From the NCBI RefSeq assembly GCF_009720745.1, contig NZ_WNKX01000004.1, positions 127,421 through 191,420 of the forward strand: a DNA stretch of 64,000 nucleotides, read 5' to 3'. This DNA comes from Massilia eburnea (GTDB lineage Bacteria; Pseudomonadota; Gammaproteobacteria; Burkholderiales; Burkholderiaceae_D). Below are positions 3,929 through 63,992 of this stretch, one piece after another (within the stretch, counting starts at the first letter, position 1; every line of letters begins with the position of its first letter). The translations under genes and the position numbers were made by a program. The notes beneath the pieces were generated by a model. That model searched no databases. It worked only from the letters and a program-made list of their open reading frames with translations, and was not told where the DNA came from.

Positions 3929-4087
3929 ACCTGGGTACGACCCAAGGGTCGGACCCTGTCTGTTCGCCGGCCGCGGGTTTCGGTTGTGCGATGTTGATCT
4001 TCGCAGAATGGCAAAGGCTTTCACCCCAATCCTCGGCCGCAATACCGTTGAGGGTCTGACCCTTGGGTCAGACCCTGGTTTACCGGG
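3919..4087. repeat. REPIN-like pair: two inverted copies of a roughly 37-bp REP (cccggtaaacctgggt(a/c)(c/t)gacccaagggtc(g/a)gaccc) flanking a roughly 90-bp spacer
   Basis: 3919-3957 cccggtaaacctgggtacgacccaagggtcggaccc. The reverse complement of 4050-4087 reads cccggtaaaccagggtctgacccaagggtcagaccc. Each copy is internally palindromic. Confidence 0.6.
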
Positions 4088-4088
4088 C

Positions 4089-5033
4089 TTAGAAGCGGTA
4101 GCCGAAAGCGGCTTCAAACTTGTCCGCGATTTCGGCCGGGGTGAACACGTGATTCTGTGCACCCTTGGTCACAATCTTGATCGCGCCCAGGAGGCTGGCC
4201 AGGCGCCCGGTCGATTCCCAACCCAGGTCGTTGACCAGGCCAAACAGCAGGCCAGCGCGGTAAGCATCGCCGCAGCCGGTCGGGTCCAGGTCCATCGACG
4301 CATCCACCACCACGGCTGGAATATCAATCCGCTTGCCGCCGGTATAAATCTCCGAACCCTTCTCGCCGCGCGTCACGATCAGCGCTTCCAGCTTCGAAGC
4401 GATATCGGGAATCGTCAGGCCGGTACGCGACATCAGCAATTCGATCTCATAGTCATTGCAGGTCACATAAGCCGCTTTTTCGATGAAGCCGATCAGTTGC
4501 TCAGGCGTGAACATCGGCATCTGCTGGCCCGGGTCGAAGATGAACGGAATGCCCAGGCGCGCCAGGTCTTCCGCGTGCTTCAACATGCCCAGGTGGCCGT
4601 CCGGCGAGATGATCGCGATGCGGGCGGCGCCGGCTTTTTCGATCGGGTTCTCATGCGCGAAGGACATGGCGCCAGGATGGAAGGCGTTGATCTGGTTGTG
4701 GTCCGCGTCGGCGGTGACGAAGCACTGCGCGTTGTAGGCATCCTTCTTGATCAGGATATTGTCGGTCGACAGGCCGAGTTTCTGGAAGCGCTCCAGGTAC
4801 GCTGCGCAGTCCTGGCCCAGCACGCCCACGATGCGCGGATCGCCGCCCAGCATCTTCAGCGAGTAGGCGATATTGCCGGAGCAGCCGCCAAACTCGGTGC
4901 GCATGGTCGGCACCAGGAAGGACACGTTGACCTTGTGCAGCTGGTCGGCCAGCAGCGTGTCGCCAAAGCGGCCTTCGTATTGCATGATGATGTCGATGGC
5001 CAGCGAGCCACAGACAAGCGCGGTTTTGTTCAT
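4089..5033 (-). CDS. PfkB-family carbohydrate/nucleoside kinase (adenosine kinase-like)
   Basis: Ribokinase/PfkB-like sequence with GG N-terminal motif (GSLAIDIIMQ...GGCSGNIAYSL) and C-terminal DPTGCGDAYRAG signature. Confidence 0.75.
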   Translation of the reverse strand: MNKTALVCGSLAIDIIMQYEGRFGDTLLADQLHKVNVSFLVPTMRTEFGGCSGNIAYSLKMLGGDPRIVGVLGQDCAAYLERFQKLGLSTDNILIKKDAYNAQCFVTADADHNQINAFHPGAMSFAHENPIEKAGAARIAIISPDGHLGMLKHAEDLARLGIPFIFDPGQQMPMFTPEQLIGFIEKAAYVTCNDYEIELLMSRTGLTIPDIASKLEALIVTRGEKGSEIYTGGKRIDIPAVVVDASMDLDPTGCGDAYRAGLLFGLVNDLGWESTGRLASLLGAIKIVTKGAQNHVFTPAEIADKFEAAFGYRF

Positions 5034-5040
5034 AGTATTT

Positions 5041-7908
5041 TTATGGGTAGAAAATGGCGATGTGATAGCCGGAGGCTTTGAGCTCTTTCAGCTCAAAGTA
5101 CAGTTTAATGCTTTGCTCGCTGCGCGGGCCGAAGCCTCTTTCGGCGTCCGCTGGCGACGGCAGGTATTCGCGCGGGGCGAACACGCGGCGCAGTACCGGC
5201 TTGTCGGCGTTGTCGTTCAGGGTCAGTTCGATGTGCGGCCAGGCCTGTGCGGTCTTGGACTGGTTGCGCAGCACGGTGCTGAAGCTGAAGGTGTTTTCGG
5301 CCATGGTGGCCAGCTCGCCTTGCTCGATACTGAGGGCGTCGAGCTGGGTGGGCAGGGCGATCTTGCAGCCGAGCGGCTGGCACATGGCGGCCAGCGTTGG
5401 CTTCAGCTGCGGGTAGTTGGCGGCCAGCGTGTCGCGGAAGGTGGTAGCAGCTTGCAGGGCCAGGCCGGCCAGCAGCACGGGGATGCCGATGGCCATGGTG
5501 ATGGCGGCGGCTTTGCCGTACTTCTGGCTGCGGTCGACGCGCTTCACGAAGCTCAGGTCGGAATGGTCGAGGTCATCGGCTTCGTCGACGCCAGCCAGGG
5601 CGCGCATGCGGGCTGCGGCAAGGGCGGCTTCGGCTTCGGCCTGTTCTTCGTCGATGGGCAGGGACTCGCCGTCATCGGGGACGTCGGTGTTGACGGCTGC
5701 CACGGCGTGCAGGGCGGTGGCGTCGCGTTCAGGCTCCGGCTCGGACAGGCTCCAAGGTTCGCCGGTTGGCGAGAGGTCGTGGATTTCGGCGGCGGCCGAC
5801 CATGGTTCCTCGGTTAGCGAAGGTTCGCTGCTTGCCGGTGCGGCGTCGGCATCGAGGTCGAGGGCGTCGTCTGCTTCGGGGGCGGCATTGGCGTCGGCGG
5901 CGAAGGAGGCCTCCTGCGGCTGGTCGGCTGGCGGGAGGTCTTCAAAATGGTGCGCGTCGTCGATTGCGGCTAGGACAATGTGCTCTTGCGGGATGTCGAA
6001 CGAAGGCTCGATGCGGCCGTCGGGGCGCGCGTTGTCGGCCGACCATTGGTCGATGGCTTCAATCAGGGCCGCGCCAGCGGGAGCATCCGGTTCTGCGCCG
6101 GCCTCGAAGACGGGAACTTCAACTTCGGGCGCGGGTTCTGCATGGTCGGGTTCCGACGGTGCGGCTGTTGCGGCTATGCCGGTTGCGGGCTGCTCGTCGG
6201 TGGCCGGCGCTTCGTCGGCGGGTGGGGGAAGCGCCTCGTCAGCGGCCGGCGCGTCGGCGGCACTCGGTTCATCGGCGGCAGTTAGCCCGCCGATGGCGGT
6301 GGGGCCGGCGGCACTTGGCAGTTCGTCGGCGGCTGGGGCCTCGCCAGCAGCTAGTGGCGCGTCGGCGGGGAGCGGTTGACCGGCGGCGGGTAGCTCGTCC
6401 ATGGCGCCCAGTCCGTCTGTAGCGGGCAGCTCGTCGGCAGCCGGCGCCTCGTCAGTCAATGCCGCGACGGCGGTTGGCTGCGTCGGGACGGCGGCTTCTG
6501 GCGCCGCGACATCGGCGGGTGATGACGAGCCGGTGGCTGGCGCTTGATCGGCAGCAGGTGGCTCGTTGGCTGCGACCGGTTCGTCTGCAAGCGGCAATTC
6601 GTCCGCAGCAGGCGGCACATCAGCAGCGTGCGGCGCATCGGCAGTAGCGGGCAAATCAGAAGCGAACGGCACGTCAGAAACGGACGGCACATTCACAGCA
6701 GGCGCTGCATCGACAGCAGGCGCTATATCGACAGCAGGCGCTATATCGACAGCAGGCTGCGCATCAGCAGAGCGCTGCTCGACGGCGGCTGGTGGCGTTT
6801 CGCCAGCGGGCGAAGGCGAGTTCACTGCATGCGCAGGCTCGGAAGTGTCGAACAAAAAATCGTCGACAAGCGGCGTGATCTCCTGGGCGGGCGCTTTCTT
6901 TTCGTCTGACGGGCTCTTGGCGTTGTTGAAGGCGCGGGCAACTGCGGCCATGGCGGCGGCGTCGGATGCTGCCGATGCGTTTGCCGGGATGTCTTCCCAT
7001 ACCAGCAGCTTTTCGTCGATCGCAGCCGACGGCGAGGCGGCAGGTGGGACTGCCGCGGTGGCGGGCGGAGGCGCCGAAGCTGTCCACGGCCCGGAAGCCG
7101 GCGGTTCACCGGCCGCTTCCGAGAATGCGTCATCGGGGGATACCAAAGCTGCCAGCGGGTGCGGCGCGGGTGGCGCTGCTGTCGGCGGCTCGGCTGGGCG
7201 CAGCGGCGCTTGCGGCGGCGCAGGCTGCGGAGCTGCCTGCTGCGCCGGCGAAGGTGTGGTCGCGGCGGCAAAGGCGCGCGCTACGGCGGCGCGGGCAGCG
7301 TCGTCGGGCGAAGGCTCGGCGGCTGGCGCCTGCGTGGCGGCAGTGCGCCAGACTGCAGGCGCTGGAGCTTCCGCCGGCGGAAGTGCGGAACCTGTCGGCT
7401 TGACCGCAGGCGGCAAAGTGGTGGTAGCGGCCCGCGCCGGTGCAGCATCAGCCGCCTTGAAGGCCGATTGTGGCTCGGCAGCACGGGAGGCCGGCGGCGA
7501 AGCTTCAACCGGCTTGGCTGCGGGCAGCCCGGTGCTTGCGGGGCGCGGCGGAGCGATGTCGGGCGCCTTCGGCGCAAATGGCGGCTGGGCAGGGCGAGGC
7601 GCGGGCGGCGCGGCATGCGGCGCTGGCGCGGCATGCGATGCCTCGTCGGCGAAATCGAGTTCGAAGTCGACGGGGGTGCCGTGGACGTAGTCGGAGATGG
7701 CTGGGGTGGTGTGCGCCGGTGCGGCGCGTTCCGCGACGACGTCGGGAATGACGGGCGTAGGCTTGGCCGCCGGTTCGACTAGCGCGGAGTTGCCATCGAA
7801 GACCTGGTGGCAGGAGCCACAACGGACAATGCCCCCGCGCAGTTTCAGCTGGTCAGCCGCGACCCTGAAGATCGTATTGCAATGGGGGCATTTAGTGGCG
7901 AGCGCCAT
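5041..7908 (-). CDS. Zinc-ribbon (MJ0042-type) N-terminal / DUF3426 C-terminal protein with a roughly 700-aa Pro/Ala-rich low-complexity core
   Basis: N-terminus MALATKCPHCNTIFRVAADQLKLRGGIVRCGSCHQVFDG (CxxC...CxxC). C-terminal TM plus DUF3426-like tail. Located after prmA as in other betaproteobacteria. Confidence 0.65.
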   Translation of the reverse strand: MALATKCPHCNTIFRVAADQLKLRGGIVRCGSCHQVFDGNSALVEPAAKPTPVIPDVVAERAAPAHTTPAISDYVHGTPVDFELDFADEASHAAPAPHAAPPAPRPAQPPFAPKAPDIAPPRPASTGLPAAKPVEASPPASRAAEPQSAFKAADAAPARAATTTLPPAVKPTGSALPPAEAPAPAVWRTAATQAPAAEPSPDDAARAAVARAFAAATTPSPAQQAAPQPAPPQAPLRPAEPPTAAPPAPHPLAALVSPDDAFSEAAGEPPASGPWTASAPPPATAAVPPAASPSAAIDEKLLVWEDIPANASAASDAAAMAAVARAFNNAKSPSDEKKAPAQEITPLVDDFLFDTSEPAHAVNSPSPAGETPPAAVEQRSADAQPAVDIAPAVDIAPAVDAAPAVNVPSVSDVPFASDLPATADAPHAADVPPAADELPLADEPVAANEPPAADQAPATGSSSPADVAAPEAAVPTQPTAVAALTDEAPAADELPATDGLGAMDELPAAGQPLPADAPLAAGEAPAADELPSAAGPTAIGGLTAADEPSAADAPAADEALPPPADEAPATDEQPATGIAATAAPSEPDHAEPAPEVEVPVFEAGAEPDAPAGAALIEAIDQWSADNARPDGRIEPSFDIPQEHIVLAAIDDAHHFEDLPPADQPQEASFAADANAAPEADDALDLDADAAPASSEPSLTEEPWSAAAEIHDLSPTGEPWSLSEPEPERDATALHAVAAVNTDVPDDGESLPIDEEQAEAEAALAAARMRALAGVDEADDLDHSDLSFVKRVDRSQKYGKAAAITMAIGIPVLLAGLALQAATTFRDTLAANYPQLKPTLAAMCQPLGCKIALPTQLDALSIEQGELATMAENTFSFSTVLRNQSKTAQAWPHIELTLNDNADKPVLRRVFAPREYLPSPADAERGFGPRSEQSIKLYFELKELKASGYHIAIFYP

Positions 7909-53675: not shown

Positions 53676-54773
53676 ATGTTTTCATTCCTCGTGAGCTTTT
53701 TTGCTTCCGCACTGCTGACCCTGTGGGTCATCAAGGAAGTGCGGCTGCATGGCCCCGCGCTGGACACCGATTTCGATGGCGTGCAAAAAGTGCACTCCCA
53801 TCACGTCGCCCGTATCGGCGGCTTGTCGATTTTCCTGGCTGTCGCGCTGAGCGCCTGTATTTCCGTCTGGCGCGTGCCGGTGATGACCAGCTGGATGCTG
53901 TCGCTGATGATGTGCGCGTTTTTCGCCTTTGCCGGCGGCATCGTGGAAGACTATACCGGCAAGGTCAGCGCGCGGCGGCGGCTGCTGCTGACCATGTTTG
54001 CCGCCTTGCTTGGCTATTTCCTGCTGGACGCCCGCATCGATCGCATTGACTGGGGCGTTTCAGCCTTGCCCCTGCCTTATTTGTGGCTGACCTTGCCGCT
54101 CACCGTACTGGCCGTGGCCGGCATCGCCAACGCCATTAATATCATCGACGGCTTTAATGGCCTGGCCAGCGTGGTGACTATTTGCATGTTGCTGTCGCTG
54201 GGTTATGTCGCTTTGCAGGTCAACGATACTTTCGTCCTGGTGACGGCATTGATTGTGGCGGGGGCCACGGCCGGTTTCCTGATCTGGAATTATCCGGTCG
54301 GACTGATATTCCTGGGCGATGGCGGCGCCTATTTTATTGGCTTTATGCTGGGGGAATTGGCCCTGCTGCTGGTAATGCGCAATCCTCAGGTTTCTACCTG
54401 GTACGCAGTATTGCTATTGATTTATCCCGCATTTGAAACCCTGTTCAGCGCTTATCGGCGCCTGTTCATCCGCGGCACTTCGCCTGCGATGCCGGACGGC
54501 ATTCATTTGCACAGCCTGATTTTCCGCCGCGTGGTGCAATGGGCCGTCGGGGCCAGGGATGCGCGGGCTCTGGTGCGCCGCAATTCACTGACTTCGCCTT
54601 ACCTGTGGATGTTTTCGCTGATGGCCGTGATTCCCGCCACGGTATTCTGGCGCTATTCATGGGTGCTGATGCTGTTTTGCCTCTTATTTATTGCTAGTTA
54701 TGTCTGGCTTTATGTGCGCATTGTGCGATTTAAAGCACCACGCTGGATGATTCGCCATAAGAAAATCCGATAA
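53676..54773 (+). CDS. Glycosyltransferase family 4 (MraY/WecA-like polyprenyl-phosphate sugar-1-phosphate transferase)
   Basis: Multi-TM protein with the IANAINIIDGFNGLA motif. Confidence 0.75.
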   Translation: MFSFLVSFFASALLTLWVIKEVRLHGPALDTDFDGVQKVHSHHVARIGGLSIFLAVALSACISVWRVPVMTSWMLSLMMCAFFAFAGGIVEDYTGKVSARRRLLLTMFAALLGYFLLDARIDRIDWGVSALPLPYLWLTLPLTVLAVAGIANAINIIDGFNGLASVVTICMLLSLGYVALQVNDTFVLVTALIVAGATAGFLIWNYPVGLIFLGDGGAYFIGFMLGELALLLVMRNPQVSTWYAVLLLIYPAFETLFSAYRRLFIRGTSPAMPDGIHLHSLIFRRVVQWAVGARDARALVRRNSLTSPYLWMFSLMAVIPATVFWRYSWVLMLFCLLFIASYVWLYVRIVRFKAPRWMIRHKKIR

Positions 54774-54821
54774 GGTACTCGTGTATACTTCAGTGACCGA
54801 AATTCAATAGAGGATAGGAAG

Positions 54822-55136
54822 ATGGACCTGTCGAAATTGTCGTCCCCTGAATTACGCAACCTGCAAGAGCAGATTAAGCGTGAGTTAAAACAGCGCGAAG
54901 GCATGGATAAGCAAAAGGCGCGCGAACAGATTTTCGCCATCGCCCAGCAATCCGGCGTGCCGCTGAAAGAATTGCTGGCCGGCTTCCCGGGCAGCCGCAA
55001 CAAGGGCGGGAAGGTCGAGGCGCGCTATCGCAATCCGGGCAATGCCAACGAACAGTGGACTGGCCGCGGCCGCCAGCCGAAGTGGGTGCGCGACTGGGTC
55101 GACAGCGGAAAGTCGATCGACGGACTGCGCATCTGA
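54822..55136 (+). CDS. H-NS-like nucleoid-associated DNA-binding protein
   Basis: N-terminal coiled coil, and C-terminal H-NS DNA-binding motif ...RYRNPGNANEQWTGRGRQPKWV... AT-rich upstream region. Confidence 0.75.
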   Translation: MDLSKLSSPELRNLQEQIKRELKQREGMDKQKAREQIFAIAQQSGVPLKELLAGFPGSRNKGGKVEARYRNPGNANEQWTGRGRQPKWVRDWVDSGKSIDGLRI

Positions 55137-55164
55137 ACTCATTTTTTCAAACTTCAAGTTTTCT

Positions 55165-56544
55165 ATGGTTGCTCTCTCCAAATCCATCTTCAAGGCCTAC
55201 GATATCCGTGGAATTATCGGTAAAACACTGGACGAAGGCGTGGCCCGGTCCATCGGCCATGCGTTCGGCCTGGCCGCTGCCGCCAAGGGAGAGCGCAGCG
55301 TGGTCATTGGCCGCGACGGCCGCTTGTCCGGCCCGGGCCTGATCGCCGCCCTGGCGCAAGGGCTGCAGGCTGCCGGCGTTGACGTGATCGACCTGGGCGT
55401 TGTGGCCACCCCGATGGTGTACTACGGCACCCAGGTGCTCGATACGCGTTCCGGCATGATGGTCACCGGAAGCCATAATCCGCCCGACTACAACGGCTTC
55501 AAGATGGTGCTGAAGGGCGAGGCGATCCACGGCGAAGCCATCAGCGGCCTGTACGACGCCATTGCCGCCGGCCTGCAGCCGGCAGCTGCCGCCGGCAAGT
55601 ACGGCACTTACGATATCCGCGAGCAGTACCTGCAGCGCATCATCGGCGACGTCAAGATTGCGCGCCCGATCAAGATCGCGGTCGATTGCGGCAACGGCGT
55701 GGCCGGCGCTTTCGCGGGCGACCTGTATCGCGGCATGGGCTGCGAAGTGATCGAGCTGTTCTGCGAAGTGGACGGCACCTTCCCCAACCACCACCCGGAT
55801 CCGGCGCACCCGGAAAACCTGCAGGACCTGATCAAGGCGCTGCAGGAGACCGATGCCGAGATCGGCCTGGCTTTTGACGGCGACGGCGACCGCCTGGGCA
55901 TCGTTACCAAGGACGGCCAGATCATCTTCCCGGACCGCCAGATGATGCTGTTCGCCGAGGACGTGCTGACCCGCCATCCGGGCGAGCAGATCCTGTATGA
56001 CGTGAAATGCACGCGCCACCTGGCGCCCTACATCGAGAAGGCAGGCGGCAAGCCGCTGATGTACAAGACCGGCCACTCCCTGGTGAAGGCCAAGCTGAAG
56101 GAAACCGGCGCCCCGCTGGGCGGCGAAATGAGCGGCCATATCTTCTTCAAGGACCGCTGGTACGGCTTTGACGACGGCTTGTACGCCGGCGCGCGCATGC
56201 TGGAAATCCTGACCCGCCACGCCGATCCGTCGGCCCTGCTGAACGCGCTGCCCAAATCGGACAGCACGCCGGAACTGCACCTGCACCTGAACGAAGGCGA
56301 GAATTACTCGCTGATGGCCAAGCTCGTGGCCGAGGCGAAATTCCCGGGAAATGAGCGCGTGATCGACATCGACGGCCTGCGCGTGGAATACGCCGACGGC
56401 TTTGGCCTGGCGCGTTCCTCCAACACCACGCCGGTGATCGTGATGCGTTTCGAGGCGGAGAGCCCGGCGGCGCTGGCGCGCATCCAGGGCCAGTTCCGCG
56501 AAGTGATCCTGGCTGCCAAGCCTGACGCACAGTTGCCGTTCTAA
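55165..56544 (+). CDS. Phosphomannomutase/phosphoglucomutase (AlgC/ManB type)
   Basis: Active-site TGSHNPPDYNGFK, and GDGDRLG. Start at MVALSK (ATG 55165). Confidence 0.85.
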   Translation: MVALSKSIFKAYDIRGIIGKTLDEGVARSIGHAFGLAAAAKGERSVVIGRDGRLSGPGLIAALAQGLQAAGVDVIDLGVVATPMVYYGTQVLDTRSGMMVTGSHNPPDYNGFKMVLKGEAIHGEAISGLYDAIAAGLQPAAAAGKYGTYDIREQYLQRIIGDVKIARPIKIAVDCGNGVAGAFAGDLYRGMGCEVIELFCEVDGTFPNHHPDPAHPENLQDLIKALQETDAEIGLAFDGDGDRLGIVTKDGQIIFPDRQMMLFAEDVLTRHPGEQILYDVKCTRHLAPYIEKAGGKPLMYKTGHSLVKAKLKETGAPLGGEMSGHIFFKDRWYGFDDGLYAGARMLEILTRHADPSALLNALPKSDSTPELHLHLNEGENYSLMAKLVAEAKFPGNERVIDIDGLRVEYADGFGLARSSNTTPVIVMRFEAESPAALARIQGQFREVILAAKPDAQLPF

Positions 56545-57510
56545 ATGAATATCCTCCTGGTGCGCGTTTCCTCGATGGGCGACGTGCTGCACAATATGCC
56601 CATCGTGGCCGACATCAAGCGCCATTTTCCCGATGCGAACGTCGACTGGGTGGTGGAGGAGGGGTATGTCAGCCTGGTGCGCCTGAACCCCATGGTGCGC
56701 AAGATCCTGCCGTGGGGCCTGCGCCGCTGGCGCAAGAGCCTGGGCAAGAAGGAAACGCGCGCCGAGATCAGCGCCTTTTTCCGCGACCTGCGCGCAGTAG
56801 AGTACGACTATGTCTTCGACACCCAGGGCTTGCTGAAGACCGGCATCCTGATGGGCGCCGCGCGCGGCAAGCACAAGATCGGCATGGCCAACGGCACCGA
56901 AGGTTCGGGCTACGAGGGTTTATCGCGCATTTTCCACAGCAGGAGCATACCGATCGAGCGCCGTACGCACGCAGTGGCGCGCGGCCGCGTGATCGTGGCC
57001 GAGGCGCTGGGCTTCAGGGCGGACACCCCGGCCGACTTCGGCCTGCCGGAAATACCGGCCAGCGAGCCGCGCCCGGAGTGGATGGGCGAAGCGCCGTACG
57101 CAGTGTTCTTCCACGGCACGGCGCGCGACGCCAAGAAGTGGGCTGCGGCCAGCTGGATCGAACTGGGCAGGGCACTGGCGCCAATGCCGGTGCTGCTGCC
57201 ATGGGGCTCGCTCAAGGAAAAAGCGGAAGCCGAAGCGCTGGCCGCCGCCATTCCGAACGCGCGCGTACTGCCGAAACTGCCGATGGCCGATGCCGTCATG
57301 CTGGCGCGCCGCGCCGCCCTGGCGGTGGGCGTGGACACCGGCCTGACCCATATCGCGGCTGCCTTCTCGCGTCCCGTTGTGGAAATCTATACCGATTCGC
57401 CGCGCTGGAAGACGGAAGGCAACTGGTCGCCGCGCATCGTCAACCTGGGCGACGCGGGTTCGCCGCCCGGCGTGGCCGAAGTGCTGGCCGCCGCCAAGAG
57501 CCTGCTCTGA
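56545..57510 (+). CDS. waaC: ADP-heptose:LPS heptosyltransferase I
   Basis: MNILLVRVSSMGDVLHNMPIVADIKRHFPDANVDWVVEE... GT9 family. Immediately follows the mutase gene. Confidence 0.8.
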   Translation: MNILLVRVSSMGDVLHNMPIVADIKRHFPDANVDWVVEEGYVSLVRLNPMVRKILPWGLRRWRKSLGKKETRAEISAFFRDLRAVEYDYVFDTQGLLKTGILMGAARGKHKIGMANGTEGSGYEGLSRIFHSRSIPIERRTHAVARGRVIVAEALGFRADTPADFGLPEIPASEPRPEWMGEAPYAVFFHGTARDAKKWAAASWIELGRALAPMPVLLPWGSLKEKAEAEALAAAIPNARVLPKLPMADAVMLARRAALAVGVDTGLTHIAAAFSRPVVEIYTDSPRWKTEGNWSPRIVNLGDAGSPPGVAEVLAAAKSLL

Positions 57511-57512
57511 GC

Positions 57513-58796
57513 ATGCGCATCTTTTACACCTTGATGTGGTGGCTGGCCTTGCCCCTGGTGCTGGGCCGCCTGTGGTGGCGCGGCCGCAAGGAACCGGGCT
57601 ACCGCCAGTATTGGGGCGAGCGCCTGGGCTTTTATGGCGCCCGCGCCGCCAACGATGAACCGGCTACCATCTGGGTGCATGCGGTGTCGGTGGGCGAAAC
57701 GCGCGCCGCCGAACCGCTGGTCGACGCTCTGCTGGCGAAATACCCGCAGGCGCGCATCGTACTGACCTGCATGACGCCGACCGGCCGGGCCACCGGCAAA
57801 AGCCTGTTCGCCAAGCACGGTGCGCGTCTGGTGCAGTCTTACCTGCCTTACGACATGCCGCTGCTGGTGGCGCGCTTCATCCGCCATTTCGAACCGCGCA
57901 TCTGCATCCTGATGGAGACCGAGGTGTGGCCGAACCTGATCCTGCAATGCGGCCGCGACCAAGTACCGGTAGTGCTGGCCAACGCCCGCCTGAGCGAACG
58001 TTCGCTGGGCAAGGCGCTGCGCTTCGGCAAGGCGATTCGCGATGCGGCGCAGGGCATCTCGCTGGTGGCTGCGCAGACCGAAGCCGATGCGCAGCGCATC
58101 CGCACGCTGGGCGCTTCGCATGTGAGCGTCACCGGCAGCATCAAGTTCGACGTGGCGATTCCGCCGGCTGCCCTGGCGGCCGGCGCGCAATTGCGCCGGC
58201 AGTTCGGCCAGCGCCCGGTGTTCCTGTGCGCCAGTACGCGCGAAGGCGAGGAGGGCATGATCCTGGACGCTTTCCGGTCTGCTCGCGCCTCGCTGCCGGC
58301 CAATGTGCTGCTGCTGATCGTGCCGCGCCATCCGCAACGCTTCAGCGAGGTGGCCGCCATGGTGGAGGAGCGCGGACTGTCGGTGCAGCTGCGTTCCGCC
58401 TTGAAGGAGGCCGGCGCCAGCGTCGCGCCAGGGACCGAAGTGGTGCTGGGCGACTCGATGGGCGAAATGTTCGCCTACTATTCCGCTTGCGACCTGGCCT
58501 TCATCGGCGGCAGCCTGCAGCCGCTGGGCGGGCAGAACCTGATCGAGCCGGCCGCGCTGGGCAAGCCGGTGATTGTCGGAGAGCACACCTTCAATTTTGC
58601 GCAAGCGACGGAAGACTGCATACAGCAGGGCGGCGCGGTGCGCGTGGCAAACAGCGACGCCCTGATGCAGCAAGTGGCGCGCCTGCTGGCTGACAGCGAG
58701 GCGCGCGACGCCATGGGCGCCCATGCCCTCACCTTTGCCAATAGCCACCGCGGCGCCACGGCCCGCACCATCGCATTGCTTCCAGACTTGAAGTGA
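57513..58796 (+). CDS. waaA: 3-deoxy-D-manno-octulosonic acid (Kdo) transferase
   Basis: ...IWVHAVSVGETRAAEPLV... KdtA family. Start at MRIFYT (ATG 57513), in frame inside the longer track ORF that begins at 56712. Confidence 0.85.
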   Translation: MRIFYTLMWWLALPLVLGRLWWRGRKEPGYRQYWGERLGFYGARAANDEPATIWVHAVSVGETRAAEPLVDALLAKYPQARIVLTCMTPTGRATGKSLFAKHGARLVQSYLPYDMPLLVARFIRHFEPRICILMETEVWPNLILQCGRDQVPVVLANARLSERSLGKALRFGKAIRDAAQGISLVAAQTEADAQRIRTLGASHVSVTGSIKFDVAIPPAALAAGAQLRRQFGQRPVFLCASTREGEEGMILDAFRSARASLPANVLLLIVPRHPQRFSEVAAMVEERGLSVQLRSALKEAGASVAPGTEVVLGDSMGEMFAYYSACDLAFIGGSLQPLGGQNLIEPAALGKPVIVGEHTFNFAQATEDCIQQGGAVRVANSDALMQQVARLLADSEARDAMGAHALTFANSHRGATARTIALLPDLK

Positions 58797-58887
58797 CAAA
58801 TGTCATGACGAAGTCGTGGCATTTCAATCTGGTGCCCTTGGGCGGCAATCCGGATACTGCGTTCACCTGACCACAAGGAGAACCGCA

Positions 58888-60675
58888 ATGCTGAAACTGT
58901 TAGTCGCCGCCAGCCTGGCCTGCGCCCTGCCTGCCATGGCTGTTGAAGCCACCCTGATCAAGGATGTCCGCGTCTTCGACGGGCAGCAGGTGTACGCCAA
59001 GCGCAGCGTGCTGCTGGAAGGCGGCAAGATCGCCAGCGCCGACTTCAAAGGCAAGGCGCCCGACGGCGCGCAAGTGGTCGACGGCGCCGGCCGCACCCTG
59101 ATGCCGGGCCTGATCGACTCCCATACCCACAGCTTCCAGCATTTCGAGCTGCCCCTGGTGTTTGGCGTGACCAGCGAACTGGATATGTTTACCGCCGTGC
59201 CGCTTCTGCAGGAAATGAACGGCCGCATGCAGCGCGGCGAAAACCGGGACCGGCCTGACATCATTTCGGCCGGCATCCTCGCCACGGTGCCAGGCGGACA
59301 TGGCACCGAATACGGCATGGCCATCCCGACCCTGACCAAGCCGGAAGAGGCGCAGCCCTGGGTCGACGCCCGCATTGCAGAAGGCTCGCACTTCATCAAG
59401 ATCGTGATGGAACCCGGCTGGCCGGGCCACCCGATGCCCTCGCTGGACCGCGCTACGGTGAAAGCGCTGGTTGCGGCCGCCCACAAGCGCGGCAAGATGG
59501 CGGTGGTGCACATCTCCAATCCAGCGGATGCCCGCGCCGCACTGGAAGAAGGCGCAGATGGCCTGGTGCACCTGTTCAGCGGCGAGTCGATTTCGGGGAC
59601 GGACCTCAAGTCCTTCGTCAAGCTGGCGCATGATCGCAAAGCCTTCATCATTCCGACCTTCAGCGTGCTGGAAAGCGTGGCCGGCCTGAAGGAAAAGGAC
59701 GTGCTGGAAGATAAGAAGATGATGGCACTGCTGACGAGCGACCAGATCGTACCGCTCAATTCACCCTACGGAAAAACGGAAATGGCGCAGCGCATGAACG
59801 CCACCAGGGAAGTGGTGGCAGCGCTGCGCAATGCCGGCGTGCCGCTGCTGGCGGGCACCGATGCCGGCAATGGCGGCACCCAGGCCGGCGCCAGCCTGCA
59901 CCACGAGTTGCTGTCCCTGACCCAGGCCGGCCTGACGCCGCTGGAAGCGCTGCGTTCCGCCACGTCGGTGCCAGCCAAAGCGTTCCACCTGGCCGAGCGC
60001 GGCGTGATCGCCAAAGGCGCCAAGGCCGACCTGGTGCTGGTCGATGGCGACCCAAGCCAGGACATCAAGGCCAGCCGCAATATCGTCGAAGTCTGGAAGG
60101 ATGGAGCGACCGTGTCGGAGCGCCGCAAGGCACAGCAGGAGCTGGTGGCGAAGGAACTGAGCGCGCCCAAAGCCGCGCCACTGGTGCTGCCAGCCGACGG
60201 CATGATCAGCCTGTTCAGCAAAGAAAAACTGGCCAGCCCTTTCGGTACCGGCTGGGTGCCTTCGAACGACGCTTTCCTGGGTGGTAAATCCACCGTGAAC
60301 CTGGAATACGCAGGCGAGAATTCGGTCAACGTGAAGGCCAGCGTGCAGCCGGGCTTTGCCTTCCCCTGGGCCGGCATCGCGTTCGTGCCTGGCAGCCAGG
60401 CGTTCCAGCCGGCCAACCTGAGCGCCGCCAAAACCTTGCGCTTCCGCGTCAAGGGCGACGGCCAGGGCTACCAGGTCGGGATCATGCATGGCAGCGCACG
60501 CATTCCGGTCTACCAGCCGTTTGCAGCGGGTGCGGAATGGCAGGAAGTGGCGCTGCCGATGGCCAGCTTCGCCGGGGTTGATACCAGCGCGATTACGCTG
60601 ATCATGTTCAACGCCGGCCCCAAGACTGGCGATTACCAGTTCCAGATCGCCGACGTGCGCCTGACTAACCAGTAA
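58888..60675 (+). CDS. Secreted amidohydrolase-family metallohydrolase with extra roughly 190-aa C-terminal beta-rich (carbohydrate-binding-like) domain
   Basis: Signal peptide MLKLLVAASLACALPAMA. PGLIDSHTHSF metal-binding motif. C-terminal domain rich in G/S/aromatic residues. Confidence 0.7.
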   Translation: MLKLLVAASLACALPAMAVEATLIKDVRVFDGQQVYAKRSVLLEGGKIASADFKGKAPDGAQVVDGAGRTLMPGLIDSHTHSFQHFELPLVFGVTSELDMFTAVPLLQEMNGRMQRGENRDRPDIISAGILATVPGGHGTEYGMAIPTLTKPEEAQPWVDARIAEGSHFIKIVMEPGWPGHPMPSLDRATVKALVAAAHKRGKMAVVHISNPADARAALEEGADGLVHLFSGESISGTDLKSFVKLAHDRKAFIIPTFSVLESVAGLKEKDVLEDKKMMALLTSDQIVPLNSPYGKTEMAQRMNATREVVAALRNAGVPLLAGTDAGNGGTQAGASLHHELLSLTQAGLTPLEALRSATSVPAKAFHLAERGVIAKGAKADLVLVDGDPSQDIKASRNIVEVWKDGATVSERRKAQQELVAKELSAPKAAPLVLPADGMISLFSKEKLASPFGTGWVPSNDAFLGGKSTVNLEYAGENSVNVKASVQPGFAFPWAGIAFVPGSQAFQPANLSAAKTLRFRVKGDGQGYQVGIMHGSARIPVYQPFAAGAEWQEVALPMASFAGVDTSAITLIMFNAGPKTGDYQFQIADVRLTNQ

Positions 60676-60680
60676 GGAAA

Positions 60681-61808
60681 ATGAGCATGATGCAGGTCAG
60701 GCGCTGGCTGGAAGGTCCCTGGGTGCCGCGGCACCTCGGCAAGGCGCCGTACCTGTGGCTGTTGTCGCTGAACTTCTTCTTCTGGAAGTACTTCTACATC
60801 AGTCCAACGCCGCTGGAGCTGGGCATGCTGGCGCTGTCGATTGCGGTATTCGTGCCGATCTATTTCGCCAGCTACTGGCTGCGCAACCGGCGCGCGGTGC
60901 CGCTGCTGCTGGCGACAGTGGCTTTGGGGATGGCCTGGGCGCCCTTCAATTTCGGCGCCTGCACCTTCTTCATCTTTGCCTGCTCGATGTGCGCGGCGCT
61001 GGAGCAGCCGCGCCAGGCCTACCTCGGGATCTGCCTGATCCTCGGCTCCGCCGCGCTGGTGGGGATGACGGTTGAACTGCCGCTGAGTTTCCTGCTGCCG
61101 ACGCTGGCAGTCGGTGCGCCGGTCGGTGTCGCCAGCGTGATGGACGCCCGCGTGCGCCGCTCCGGGCAGCAATTGCTGCGCAAGCAGGAAGAAGTCGAAC
61201 ACATCGCCCGCATCGCCGAGCGCGAACGCATCTCGCGCGACCTGCACGATTTGCTGGGCCACACCTTGTCGCTGATTGCCATCAAGGCCGAATTGGCGGG
61301 ACGCCTGCTGGAACGCGACAGCGCTGCCACAGCGAAGGAAATCAAGGATATCGAAACCACGGCGCGCCACGCCCTGGCCGAAGTGCGCAGCGCCGTCAGC
61401 GGCTACCGCCAGAGCGGCTTTGCGCAGGAGCTGGCGCAAGCGCGCGCCGCGCTGGCCGCAGCCGATGTGGAGCTGCAGGCGGAGGTGCAGCCGTTCGCCA
61501 TGACCGCCACGGCGGAGAACGTGCTGGCGTTGTCGTTGCGCGAAGCGGTGACCAATATCCTGCGTCACGCCAAGGCTACGCGCTGCCTGGTCAGCGTGCG
61601 GCAGGAATGCGGGCAAATTGTCTGCCATATCAGCGACGATGGCGCTGCGCCGGTCGACCGCGAAGCGCTGGCACGCGGCAATGGGCTGCGCGGCATGCGC
61701 GAGCGGGTTGCCGCCGCCGGCGGCCGCCTGGTCTTGCAGGCGGGCCAGGGCGCGCCGGGCAGCGGCCTGGCGCTGGAACTACATTTACCGCTGGGAGCTG
61801 TCGCATGA
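60681..61808 (+). CDS. Membrane-embedded sensor histidine kinase, HisKA_3 (DesK/LiaS/NarX-like) type
   Basis: At least four TM helices with almost no periplasmic loop. H-box RDLHDLLGHTLS. HATPase_c G-boxes. SD aaggaaa before the ATG. Confidence 0.75.
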   Translation: MSMMQVRRWLEGPWVPRHLGKAPYLWLLSLNFFFWKYFYISPTPLELGMLALSIAVFVPIYFASYWLRNRRAVPLLLATVALGMAWAPFNFGACTFFIFACSMCAALEQPRQAYLGICLILGSAALVGMTVELPLSFLLPTLAVGAPVGVASVMDARVRRSGQQLLRKQEEVEHIARIAERERISRDLHDLLGHTLSLIAIKAELAGRLLERDSAATAKEIKDIETTARHALAEVRSAVSGYRQSGFAQELAQARAALAAADVELQAEVQPFAMTATAENVLALSLREAVTNILRHAKATRCLVSVRQECGQIVCHISDDGAAPVDREALARGNGLRGMRERVAAAGGRLVLQAGQGAPGSGLALELHLPLGAVA

Positions 61809-62410
61809 TCCGCGTATTGATTGCCGAGGACCAGTCGCTGGTGCTGGGCGCCCTTGCCGCGCTGCTGAAACTGGAGCACGACCTGGACGTGGTCGGCCAG
61901 GCACGCAATGGGCAGGAAGCGCTGGCCCTGTGCGAGCAGCTGCAGCCCGACATCGTGCTGACCGATATCGAAATGCCCTTGATGACGGGCCTCGAGCTGG
62001 CCGCCGTGCTGGCCGAACGCGGCGCCGCGGCGCGCGTCATCATCGTCACCACCTTCGCCCGTTCCGGCTACCTGCGCCGCGCCATGGCGGCCGGTGTGCG
62101 CGGCTACCTGCTGAAGGACGCACCTTCCGAATCGCTGGCCGCCGCCATCCGCAGCGTGCATGCCGGCGGCCGCGCCATCGCTCCCGAGCTTGCGCTGGAG
62201 AGCTGGAGCGGCGGCGAAGATCCATTAAGCGAACGCGAACGCCAGGTGCTGCGCCTGGCGGGCGAAGGCCGCACTGGCGCCGACATCGCCAAACAATTGA
62301 GCCTCTCTGAAGGCACGGTGCGCAACTACCTGTCGGAAGCAATCAGCAAACTCAATGCCGGCAACCGCGTCGAAGCCTTCCGCCTGGCCCGCGAGGCCGG
62401 CTGGCTTTAG
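61805..62410 (+). CDS. NarL/FixJ (LuxR-type HTH) response regulator
   Basis: Receiver (IAEDQSLV...DIEMPLMTGLE) plus LuxR HTH (LSERERQVLRLAGEGRTGADIAKQLSLSEGTVRNY). Start overlaps the HK stop. Confidence 0.85.
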   Translation: MIRVLIAEDQSLVLGALAALLKLEHDLDVVGQARNGQEALALCEQLQPDIVLTDIEMPLMTGLELAAVLAERGAAARVIIVTTFARSGYLRRAMAAGVRGYLLKDAPSESLAAAIRSVHAGGRAIAPELALESWSGGEDPLSERERQVLRLAGEGRTGADIAKQLSLSEGTVRNYLSEAISKLNAGNRVEAFRLAREAGWL

Positions 62411-63290: not shown

Positions 63291-63992
63291 CTAGCCAGCG
63301 CTGTAGGCGTGGGGCGAAATGACGCGCATTTCTGATTCGATCCACTGTTCCACCTGCTCCATCAATTCGTCGGGAGTCTTGCCTTCCGACGAAATCGGTT
63401 TGCCTACCGACACCGTGACGGTGCCCGGTTTCTTGATAAAGGAATTCTTTGGCCAGCATTCGCCCGAGTTCAGCGCGATCGGCACCACCACGGCGCCGGT
63501 CTCGATCGCCAGGCGGGTACCACCGCTCTTATATTTGCCAGCCTGGCCGACCGGAATCCGGGTCCCTTCCGGGAACATGATAATCCATTGTCCGTCTTTG
63601 AGTCGACGCTTGCCATGCGCGACAACGGATTTGAACGCATTCTTGCCTTGCTTGCGGTCGATCGGGATCATGCGCAGCAGCGCGATGCCCCAGCCGAAGA
63701 ACGGAATGTACAGGATTTCTTTCTTGAATACGAACACCAGCGGGCGTGGCAGGTTCGCCAGCAGGAAGATGGTCTCCCACGCCGACTGGTGCTTGGACAG
63801 GATGATGGCCGGGCTGTCCGGGAAGTTTTCATAGCCCTTGAACTGGTAGTTAATGCCGCAGATCCATTTGGCGCACCAGACGATGAAGACGTTCCAGCGA
63901 GAAGTGACGAAATAGCGTTTGTTGTAAGGCAGCGGCGCTGCCAGCATGCAGACTCCGGACCAGATGACGGTGGCAACCACCATCAGGATCAT
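63291..63992 (-). CDS. PlsC-family lysophospholipid acyltransferase; N-terminus at or beyond the window edge
   Basis: HxxxxE/D motif (SKHQSAWET) and FPEGTR motif. Confidence 0.65.
   Translation of the reverse strand: MILMVVATVIWSGVCMLAAPLPYNKRYFVTSRWNVFIVWCAKWICGINYQFKGYENFPDSPAIILSKHQSAWETIFLLANLPRPLVFVFKKEILYIPFFGWGIALLRMIPIDRKQGKNAFKSVVAHGKRRLKDGQWIIMFPEGTRIPVGQAGKYKSGGTRLAIETGAVVVPIALNSGECWPKNSFIKKPGTVTVSVGKPISSEGKTPDELMEQVEQWIESEMRVISPHAYSAG

Follow-up and report, generated by a model that had tools for sequence, protein, structure and literature searches.

Is the exported enzyme whose gene stands directly in front of a two-component system the product that this system controls, or is it a sensor for the system or a mere neighbor? 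This question is raised by a locus of the diderm betaproteobacterium Massilia eburnea (NCBI RefSeq assembly GCF_009720745.1, contig NZ_WNKX01000004.1), in which three genes of the plus strand lie head to tail at positions 58888-62410 of a 64,000-nucleotide stretch (64 kb; positions 127,421 to 191,420 of the contig, forward strand), referred to here as the window. The three genes encode, in order, an amidohydrolase, a sensor kinase and a NarL-type response regulator, and a first-pass annotation of the locus, made from the letters alone, had described them as a compact three-gene unit. We consider it probable, at roughly 65%, that they form a self-regulated operon of the DesK/DesR type with the exported amidohydrolase as its output. 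At the level of sequence, the locus was shown to be one operon with a DesR-type operator in front, an intact exported amidohydrolase as its first gene and a DesK-type kinase that is devoid of loops.

Gene junctions and the predicted operator

The gene for the exported metallo-amidohydrolase (58888-60675, plus strand) encodes 595 amino acids between ATG 58888 and the TAA at 60673-60675, and its Shine-Dalgarno sequence, AAGGAG, was located at 58875-58880. The gene for the DesK-type sensor histidine kinase follows on the same strand and ends at 61808, with a start at ATG 60681 (375 amino acids when counted from this codon) or at ATG 60687. A gap of 5 nt holding a Shine-Dalgarno sequence had been proposed between the two genes. 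This spacing stands if ATG 60681 is used, in which case the sequence AAGGAAA (60674-60680) directly touches the start codon; ATG 60687 is, however, probably the likelier start, as it better fits the aligned Pseudoduganella homologue, and the gap would then be 11 nt. The enzyme and kinase genes are tightly coupled whichever ATG is used. At the next junction, the kinase stop and regulator start were found to overlap as an ATGA at 61805-61808, in agreement with the first-pass annotation. The gene for the NarL-type, DesR-like response regulator (61805-62410, plus strand; Pfam Response_reg and GerE) ends in a stop codon that shares bases with that of a convergent YgjP-like gene on the opposite strand (window 62407-62410). 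No terminator-like sites were found between the three genes. The junctions of the compact unit were thus confirmed, and its linkage, which is kept across phyla, and its conserved operator place the arrangement beyond chance.

In the opposite view, the adjacency is incidental: the two-component system is unrelated to the amidohydrolase and has no part in its expression. One third of the enzyme homologues do occur without the pair, and a promoter-like match lies within the 3' end of the enzyme gene (60578-60605). When considered as a kinase promoter, however, this internal sigma-70-like match was rejected, as it was at the level of chance and not conserved in the closest relative. With a gap of only 5-11 nt, no terminator, and both linkage and operator placement conserved across phyla, incidental adjacency is extremely improbable.

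By alignment of the upstream regions of close relatives, a perfect palindrome, TGACAnnTGTCA, was found. The palindrome of the window, TGACAAATGTCA, is the predicted operator of the regulator and is located at 58794-58805 (plus strand), where it overlaps the stop codon of waaA (TGA, 58794-58796). A third half-site, TGGCA (58817-58821, plus strand), is a direct repeat of the first half-site and lies 23 bp downstream of it. Both elements precede a predicted promoter (58829-58858, plus strand) composed of the weak -35 element CTGGTG (58829-58834), an 18-bp spacer and the -10 element GATACT (58853-58858). Relative to a predicted start site near A 58865, the palindrome is centered near -65 and the third half-site near -46. 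A generic sigma-70 scan did not flag this promoter, which therefore fits the type that depends on an activator.

The exact operator was detected once in the window (0.03 copies expected by chance), where it is unique, and no second copy was found in the 64 kb even when one mismatch was allowed. The operator was conserved in related loci. When 166 of these loci were surveyed (1.8 Mb in total; individual loci are given below by L numbers), 65 exact copies were found in 64 loci, and 64 of the 65 copies were positioned upstream of a module gene, mostly 70-250 nt before the first one. The odd copy belonged to L028, where it sat at the 3' end of the enzyme gene, and five further loci had the operator with one mismatch at the same place. 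The gene behind the operator was that of an ABC ATPase where present, or that of the enzyme if the ABC genes were absent or came after it; a few loci had an unidentified stretch between the operator and the next recognized module gene. In L003 and L030, an enzyme gene with the operator was found and no kinase nearby. A logo built from 64 sites revealed a third half-site of the consensus TGA[C/T][G/A] (logo positions 24-28, 23 bp after the first half-site), a weak -35 element (36-41), a -10 element of the form nATnnT (60-65) and a CA at the start site (71-72). Promoters of the DesR type, namely Pdes and the Firmicute ABC promoters, are likewise composed of an inverted repeat together with a direct one (PMC7726353). 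Because a conserved operator of the DesR type fronts the enzyme gene, the enzyme would be a regulated output of the kinase-regulator pair.

The kinase-regulator pair and the exported enzyme

DesK is the textbook membrane thermosensor. The window kinase matched Pfam HisKA_3 (67.9 bits) and HATPase_c, with the phospho-accepting residue His189 in the motif AERERISRDLHD. Its hydropathy profile revealed five strong segments and a weaker first one (residues 22-154). Since the loops between the membrane helices are 3-7 residues in length, the kinase has no periplasmic domain, and the previous description of four or more transmembrane helices with essentially nothing in the periplasm is borne out by these five to six segments. 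The cytoplasmic part of the kinase aligned with DesK (7ssj/3gig) at an E value of about 3e-38, the next family being DevS at 1e-7. When a profile of 20 members of the kinase family was compared by hhalign to full-length DesK, residues 21-368 were aligned with residues 10-369 at an E value of 6.7e-49, and this alignment ran through the membrane region, including the GxxP hinge of the first helix (G20-P23, corresponding to G13-P16 of DesK). In the DesK query sequence, residues 154-370 were identical to the PDB chains, and the stretches around P16, P26, P103, P135 and P148 agreed with published mutagenic oligonucleotides (PMC6879721). The regulator aligned over its whole length (residues 1-200) with Bacillus subtilis DesR (4ldz) at an E value of 2.8e-58, compared to 1.5e-29 for the next family, VraR, and the GTVRNY motif of the recognition helix was identical in the two proteins. 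Judged by these alignments, no other solved proteins come nearly as close to the kinase and regulator as DesK and DesR, and the pair is placed among two-component systems of the DesK/DesR (YvfT/YvfU) family. The kinase had been likened at first to both DesK and LiaS as an intramembrane sensor; the likeness to DesK was upheld by this analysis, whereas a LiaS-type kinase was rejected based on an NCBIfam LiaS score of 41.7 bits versus a cut-off of 450.

With DesK and DesR as closest solved relatives, the pair could be envisioned as a true DesK/DesR orthologue whose main job is homeoviscous control of desaturase or lipid genes elsewhere, the amidohydrolase being a minor or recently captured passenger. 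A fatty-acid desaturase gene was indeed found directly upstream of the module in Pyxidicoccus. There, however, the operator comes after this gene rather than in front of it, and no other locus had the pairing. Neither a desaturase nor a second operator was found in the 64-kb window, and the genes that the operator precedes in 64 loci are ABC-2 or amidohydrolase genes, not those of desaturases. Desaturase control as the main job of the pair is, thus, very unlikely.

The amidohydrolase starts with a Sec-type signal peptide (MLKLLVAASLACALPAMA followed by VE; residues 1-18, with a hydrophobic core at 4-17 and an AxA site), and this region was unstructured in the AlphaFold model of the protein. 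A lipoprotein reading of the signal peptide was considered and rejected, as S-L-A-C is no lipobox and the Cys is not conserved. The catalytic domain spans residues about 21-409, with matches to Pfam Amidohydro_1 (78 bits) and Amidohydro_3 over residues 20-409. Six residues (H79, H81, K171, H208, H228 and D325) were identified as ligands of a two-metal centre, in the HxH, carboxylated Lys, His, His, Asp pattern and the fold of the amidohydrolase group; all are invariant among close homologues. The full set was kept in 78 of 80 amidohydrolase homologues from many phyla, and the two sequences that departed from it were a truncated contig and a frameshifted gene. Based on this full conservation of the catalytic residues, the amidohydrolase is regarded as a catalytically intact, working enzyme, and its signal peptide with AxA site agrees with the exported protein proposed previously. 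Among the homologues, the amidohydrolase gene of an acidobacterial locus (L066:7001-8699) is frameshifted near 7867, either as a pseudogene or through an assembly error, and a metagenome locus (L090:2359-5936) carries two tandem amidohydrolase-CIA30 genes before the kinase gene.

An AlphaFold model of the amidohydrolase, built from 51 sequences, had a predicted local distance difference test (pLDDT) score of 92.3 and a predicted template modelling (pTM) score of 0.90. When the catalytic part of this model was compared by Foldseek to solved structures, the closest were 2qs8, 3mtw (Cc2672), 3feq/3n2c, 3be7, ADH3 and the Aspergillus niger ochratoxinase at E values of about 1e-24; identity to the nearest of these folds was 21-24%, and TM-scores normalised to the target were 0.72-0.78. 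The modelled fold thus places the enzyme structurally with the prolidase/carboxypeptidase/ochratoxinase group, which was one of the placements under consideration in the first-pass annotation. Sequence matches to PDB entries were weak (E value of 3e-15 or worse), and no NCBIfam equivalog was reached, the best score being to the Caulobacter Xaa-Pro dipeptidase (90 bits versus a cut-off of 500).

The catalytic domain is followed by a helix (residues 410-425), a linker and a beta-sandwich at about 450-593. The CIA30/CBM11-like beta-sandwich was annotated at 60190-60672 (plus strand; residues about 435-595). Pfam CIA30 (PF08547) matched residues 455-562 at 34.5 bits versus a cut-off of 24, and the C-terminal domain modelled by itself had a pLDDT of 87.4. 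An extra C-terminal beta domain of about 190 amino acids and of unknown function had been reported previously; the domain is present, but at about 145-165 amino acids, and it has a known fold. Based on the model, it is a recognizable binding-module fold, a beta-sandwich of the CIA30/CBM11-like type. An exhaustive search of 1.84 billion representatives detected this subtype in just 683 clusters, in which the domain was nearly always C-terminal and the proteins were about 590-625 residues in length. By this sequence census, the subtype appears essentially specific to the amidohydrolase family. A protein search with the profile of the domain returned 10 proteins, mostly fragments. In one locus (L013:7001-7498), a free-standing CIA30-like domain is encoded immediately upstream of the amidohydrolase.

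Distribution of the module and its neighbouring genes

The enzyme alignment was scanned against one genome per species, and 80 loci were obtained. The enzyme was CIA30-bearing in 29 of these loci, 18 of which had the kinase-regulator pair in the locus. The 18 loci were from Oxalobacteraceae, Acidobacteriota, Gemmatimonadota, Xanthomonadales, other Gammaproteobacteria and Hyphomonadaceae (Alphaproteobacteria), and in all but one (17 of 18) the pair directly adjoined the enzyme gene or its ABC genes; in L026 it was divergent and 3.5 kb off. The same arrangement as in the window was also found in Pyxidicoccus (Myxococcota). Hence, the co-occurrence of enzyme and two-component system in other genomes, on which the first-pass proposal hinged, was found in several phyla. 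Between phyla, identity was 59-71% for the regulator, 33-46% for the enzyme and 31-42% for the kinase, and the ends of the module genes often overlapped.

When the open reading frames of these loci were clustered, two more conserved genes emerged, one for a DrrA-like ABC ATPase and one for an ABC-2 permease; they matched Pfam ABC_tran and ABC2_membrane and, at scores below cut-off, the drrA/drrB subfamily of NCBIfam. With them, the wider module has five genes. The commonest order in the enzyme-side loci was ATPase, permease, enzyme, kinase and regulator. The enzyme gene itself was found first, between permease and kinase, or last; it precedes the ABC genes in L010, L142 and L162 and follows the regulator gene in L004 and L012. 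Because its position in the operon is variable, the enzyme gene resembles a cargo gene.

To view the module from the kinase side as well, we combined a search of proteins with four look-ups of gene context and a metagenome scan (80 loci), and counts were made for the 53 loci in which the sequence reaches 1.9 kb or more upstream of the kinase gene. ABC genes accompanied the pair in 44 of the 53 loci, with the enzyme in 6 and without it in 38. A further 5 loci had the enzyme and the pair with no ABC genes, and the pair was alone in the remaining 4. The enzyme was, thus, present in 11 of the 53, or about a fifth. The closest relatives of the window were all of the class with the enzyme and no ABC genes; likewise, when 12 ABC proteins of related loci were used as tblastn queries, no homologue was detected in the 64-kb window.

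These counts bear on a further explanation, in which the amidohydrolase is an accessory sensor for the loop-less kinase, itself blind to signals in the periplasm. In such a three-component system, modelled on the reporting of BceAB to BceS and of LiaF to LiaS, the enzyme would bind or turn over a ligand and report to the kinase. The absence of a periplasmic domain from the kinase would be consistent with this arrangement, as would the position of the enzyme gene directly upstream of the kinase gene (overlapping it in L020, L024, L025 and L031) and the retention of the enzyme-kinase pairing across phyla. However, 38 of the 53 kinase-side operons are without the enzyme, compared to 11 with it, and signalling in the kinase family thus proceeds in its absence. 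The variable position of the enzyme gene, on either side of the ABC genes or after the regulator gene, also argues against an accessory sensor, as do the operator-bearing enzyme genes with no nearby kinase (L003 and L030), the conservation of the catalytic residues as in a working enzyme, and the divergence of the enzyme, which is much faster than that of the regulator. We regard the accessory sensor as distinctly unlikely.

Comparison to the Pseudoduganella locus (L001, with the amidohydrolase gene at 4084-5868) revealed DNA identities of 85-94% for the flanking genes and 90% for the promoter region versus 70-77% for the amidohydrolase gene, the protein being 69% identical. Judged by these identities, the amidohydrolase gene either evolves much faster than its neighbors or was exchanged by recombination. 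The same locus has a 715-nt insertion (L001:7586-8301) with a NAGPA (phosphodiester glycosidase) domain gene at the site where the stops of the regulator and ygjP-like genes overlap in the window.

Additional proteins were encoded within the module in some relatives. In loci of the acidobacterial type (L113:5725-5886, L109:2557-2718, L151:5718-5882, L105:2258-2431 and others), a conserved protein of about 53-57 amino acids with two membrane helices is encoded in the interval that separates the DesK-like kinase from the ABC-2 permease or from the operator. This protein, which had no Pfam match and is absent from the window, might serve the kinase as a small partner. In L083 (5393-5968) and L092 (231-755), the slot between operator or ABC genes and kinase is taken by genes for a secreted DUF1579-like protein and for a DUF6622 membrane protein, and this slot seems to accept varied cargo. 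In L082 (8985-13128), lanthipeptide genes (LanC-like and lantibiotic dehydratase) adjoin an ABC-kinase-regulator module without the amidohydrolase.

Upstream of the module in the window is an envelope and lipopolysaccharide-core block (53676-58796), the genes of which, named from their translations alone, encode a WecA-like transferase, an H-NS-like protein, a phosphomannomutase, a heptosyltransferase and waaA. In other genera, this block and the module were unlinked. Downstream, an acyltransferase gene (63291-63992) was considered as OlsA, which would have provided a link to ornithine lipids. This candidate was rejected: the syntenic copy in Pseudoduganella adjoins gmhB and glyS, and the gene is therefore taken to be a housekeeping plsC. 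In Pyxidicoccus xibeiensis (L081:1-6908), genes for a FeeM-like N-acyl amino acid synthase, a DUF1329 protein, an MMPL transporter and a fatty-acid desaturase lie immediately upstream of the operator and enzyme gene. Such neighbors are suggestive of a lipid-linked role; the desaturase and FeeM-like genes were rejected as partners of the module, as they were found in Pyxidicoccus and in no other locus.

Proposed mechanism and relation to known systems

In the model that we favor, the ABC-2 exporter usual to the YvfT/YvfU family would have been lost from the window and its closest relatives, with the amidohydrolase left as the sole structural output gene. The membrane helices of the kinase most likely read a property of the bilayer such as its thickness, packing or perturbation, as suggested by DesK, YvfT, SA1313 and BA5598 (PMC7726353, PMC6879721). 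The kinase would phosphorylate the regulator on Asp54, and the regulator would bind the palindrome and TGGCA half-site and activate transcription of the enzyme, kinase and regulator genes together. As the phosphorylated regulator would act on the promoter of its own operon, the operon would amplify its own expression. The enzyme would be exported by Sec and its two-metal centre would cleave an amide bond. By analogy to the nearest structural relatives, it most likely acts on an N-acyl amino acid or peptide, from which it would free the C-terminal amino acid, and the CBM11/CIA30-like domain probably holds it on a glycan or envelope surface.

Several findings weigh against this model. About a third of the enzyme homologues have no kinase or operator nearby, and the enzyme would therefore also work outside the regulon. 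The regulon, for its part, may have further members elsewhere in the genome. Activation of the DesK kinase needs four membrane prolines, P16, P26, P135 and P148 (PMC6879721), of which two are matched in the window kinase (P16 by P23 and P135 by P140). P26 is aligned to W35 and the P147 of the window kinase is two columns off P148; as these two prolines are without counterparts, the mechanism of sensing may differ from that of DesK. The likeness of the operator to Pdes, as described in PMC7726353, is one of architecture. Moreover, with the nearest characterized enzymes at 21-24% identity and no equivalog reached, the substrate class is a weak inference.

The detoxification or envelope remodelling suggested in the first-pass annotation is still a reasonable hypothesis. 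The role of the system may be either to destroy a membrane-active amide compound, beside its export where the ABC-2 pump is kept, or to trim some component of the envelope. A defence in which such a compound would be both pumped out and hydrolysed is favored by the frequent companionship of a DrrAB-like exporter, and envelope trimming is equally allowed based on the binding-module-like domain and the periplasmic location of the enzyme. For any particular substrate, our confidence is much lower than for the operon model as a whole. A broader reading would be that DesK-type bilayer sensors of several diderm phyla do not act on lipid desaturation but govern a periplasmic amidohydrolase tethered to glycan, either alone or together with an ABC-2 pump, by which an amide-linked component of the envelope is remodelled. 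Candidate targets in this case include an amino-acid lipid, a lipopeptide and the stem peptide of peptidoglycan. This broader reading is unlikely; if true, it would represent a previously unrecognized envelope-homeostasis response.

Already known are the amidohydrolase superfamily and the kinase-regulator family, including the four-gene form with ABC genes. No description of the module was found in the literature searched (CIA30 with amidohydrolase and two-component system; HisKA_3/ABC-2 modules in Gram-negatives). Relative to this literature, a periplasmic amidohydrolase tagged with CIA30/CBM11 in such a regulon, its spread over Gram-negative phyla, the minimal form without ABC genes and the operator consensus across phyla appear to be new. 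The function of the ABC-linked DesK paralogues, which are far more numerous, is obscure because the substrates of the exporters are unknown (PMC7726353). The present analysis shows that the DesK/DesR-type family and its operator reach far into Gram-negative phyla and that about a fifth of the operons have recruited a soluble, assayable periplasmic enzyme. The window presents the minimal form (operator, enzyme, kinase and regulator), which is convenient for study of both the kinase signal and the target amide compound, and the operator consensus permits regulon prediction in any genome with the pair. If the broader reading of an envelope-remodelling response is true, the enzyme would be the first biochemical handle on the purpose of the widespread YvfTU-type DesK paralogues.

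Of the known systems, DesK-DesR of B. subtilis is aligned end to end with both proteins of the window pair and shares with it a HisKA_3, multi-helix sensor without an extracellular domain, the GxxP hinge of the first helix and the regulator recognition helix. The target promoter has, in both cases, an inverted repeat as well as a direct one upstream of a weak -35 element (PMC7726353). By contrast to DesK-DesR, the output in the window is an exported amidohydrolase instead of a desaturase, one operon holds the output gene together with the pair, P26 and P148 are unmatched in the kinase, and the host is diderm; with no desaturase in the operon and no second operator in the window, the locus is not a DesK/DesR system in the strict sense. 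The YvfRS-YvfTU cluster of B. subtilis, SA1313/1314 of Staphylococcus aureus and BA5598/5597 of Bacillus anthracis are four-gene clusters of ABC, DesK-like and DesR-like genes (PMC7726353). Most relatives of the module share with these clusters the order ATPase, ABC-2 permease, kinase and regulator, with the operator before the ATPase gene, whereas the window has no ABC genes in 64 kb and the amidohydrolase gene is first in the operon. The published clusters are all from Firmicutes, while those presented here are from Acidobacteriota, Gemmatimonadota, Proteobacteria and Myxococcota.

The window enzyme has the same fold and the same six metal residues as COG1228-type enzymes, including the Lys/Arg carboxypeptidase Cc2672 (3mtw), the prolidase Sgx9260b (3feq/3n2c), the Xaa-Pro dipeptidase 2qs8, ADH3 (8ihq) and the A. 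niger ochratoxinase (4c5y). All of these solved relatives are known to act on a peptide or N-acyl amino acid and to free its C-terminal amino acid. The window enzyme differs from them by its added signal peptide and CIA30/CBM11-like domain, which the solved enzymes lack, in addition to its low identity and its scores below the NCBIfam cut-offs. The C-terminal domain, in turn, resembles CBM11 (1v0a) and the CIA30 complex I assembly factor (7zkq), as indicated by the Pfam CIA30 match above cut-off, but at 16-21% identity and on an amidohydrolase rather than a glycoside hydrolase. The window module is not of the LiaFSR or BceRS-AB type, given the low LiaS score of the kinase and the ABC partners of its relatives, which are DrrAB-like ABC-2 and not of the FtsX type. 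In LnrJK-LnrLMN of B. subtilis, a HisKA_3 kinase senses linearmycin and induces an ABC-2 exporter; the system is not known to include a hydrolase. The likeness of this system to the window module would be that of a loop-less HisKA_3 kinase and a NarL-type regulator that induce a neighboring resistance determinant in response to a membrane-active compound.

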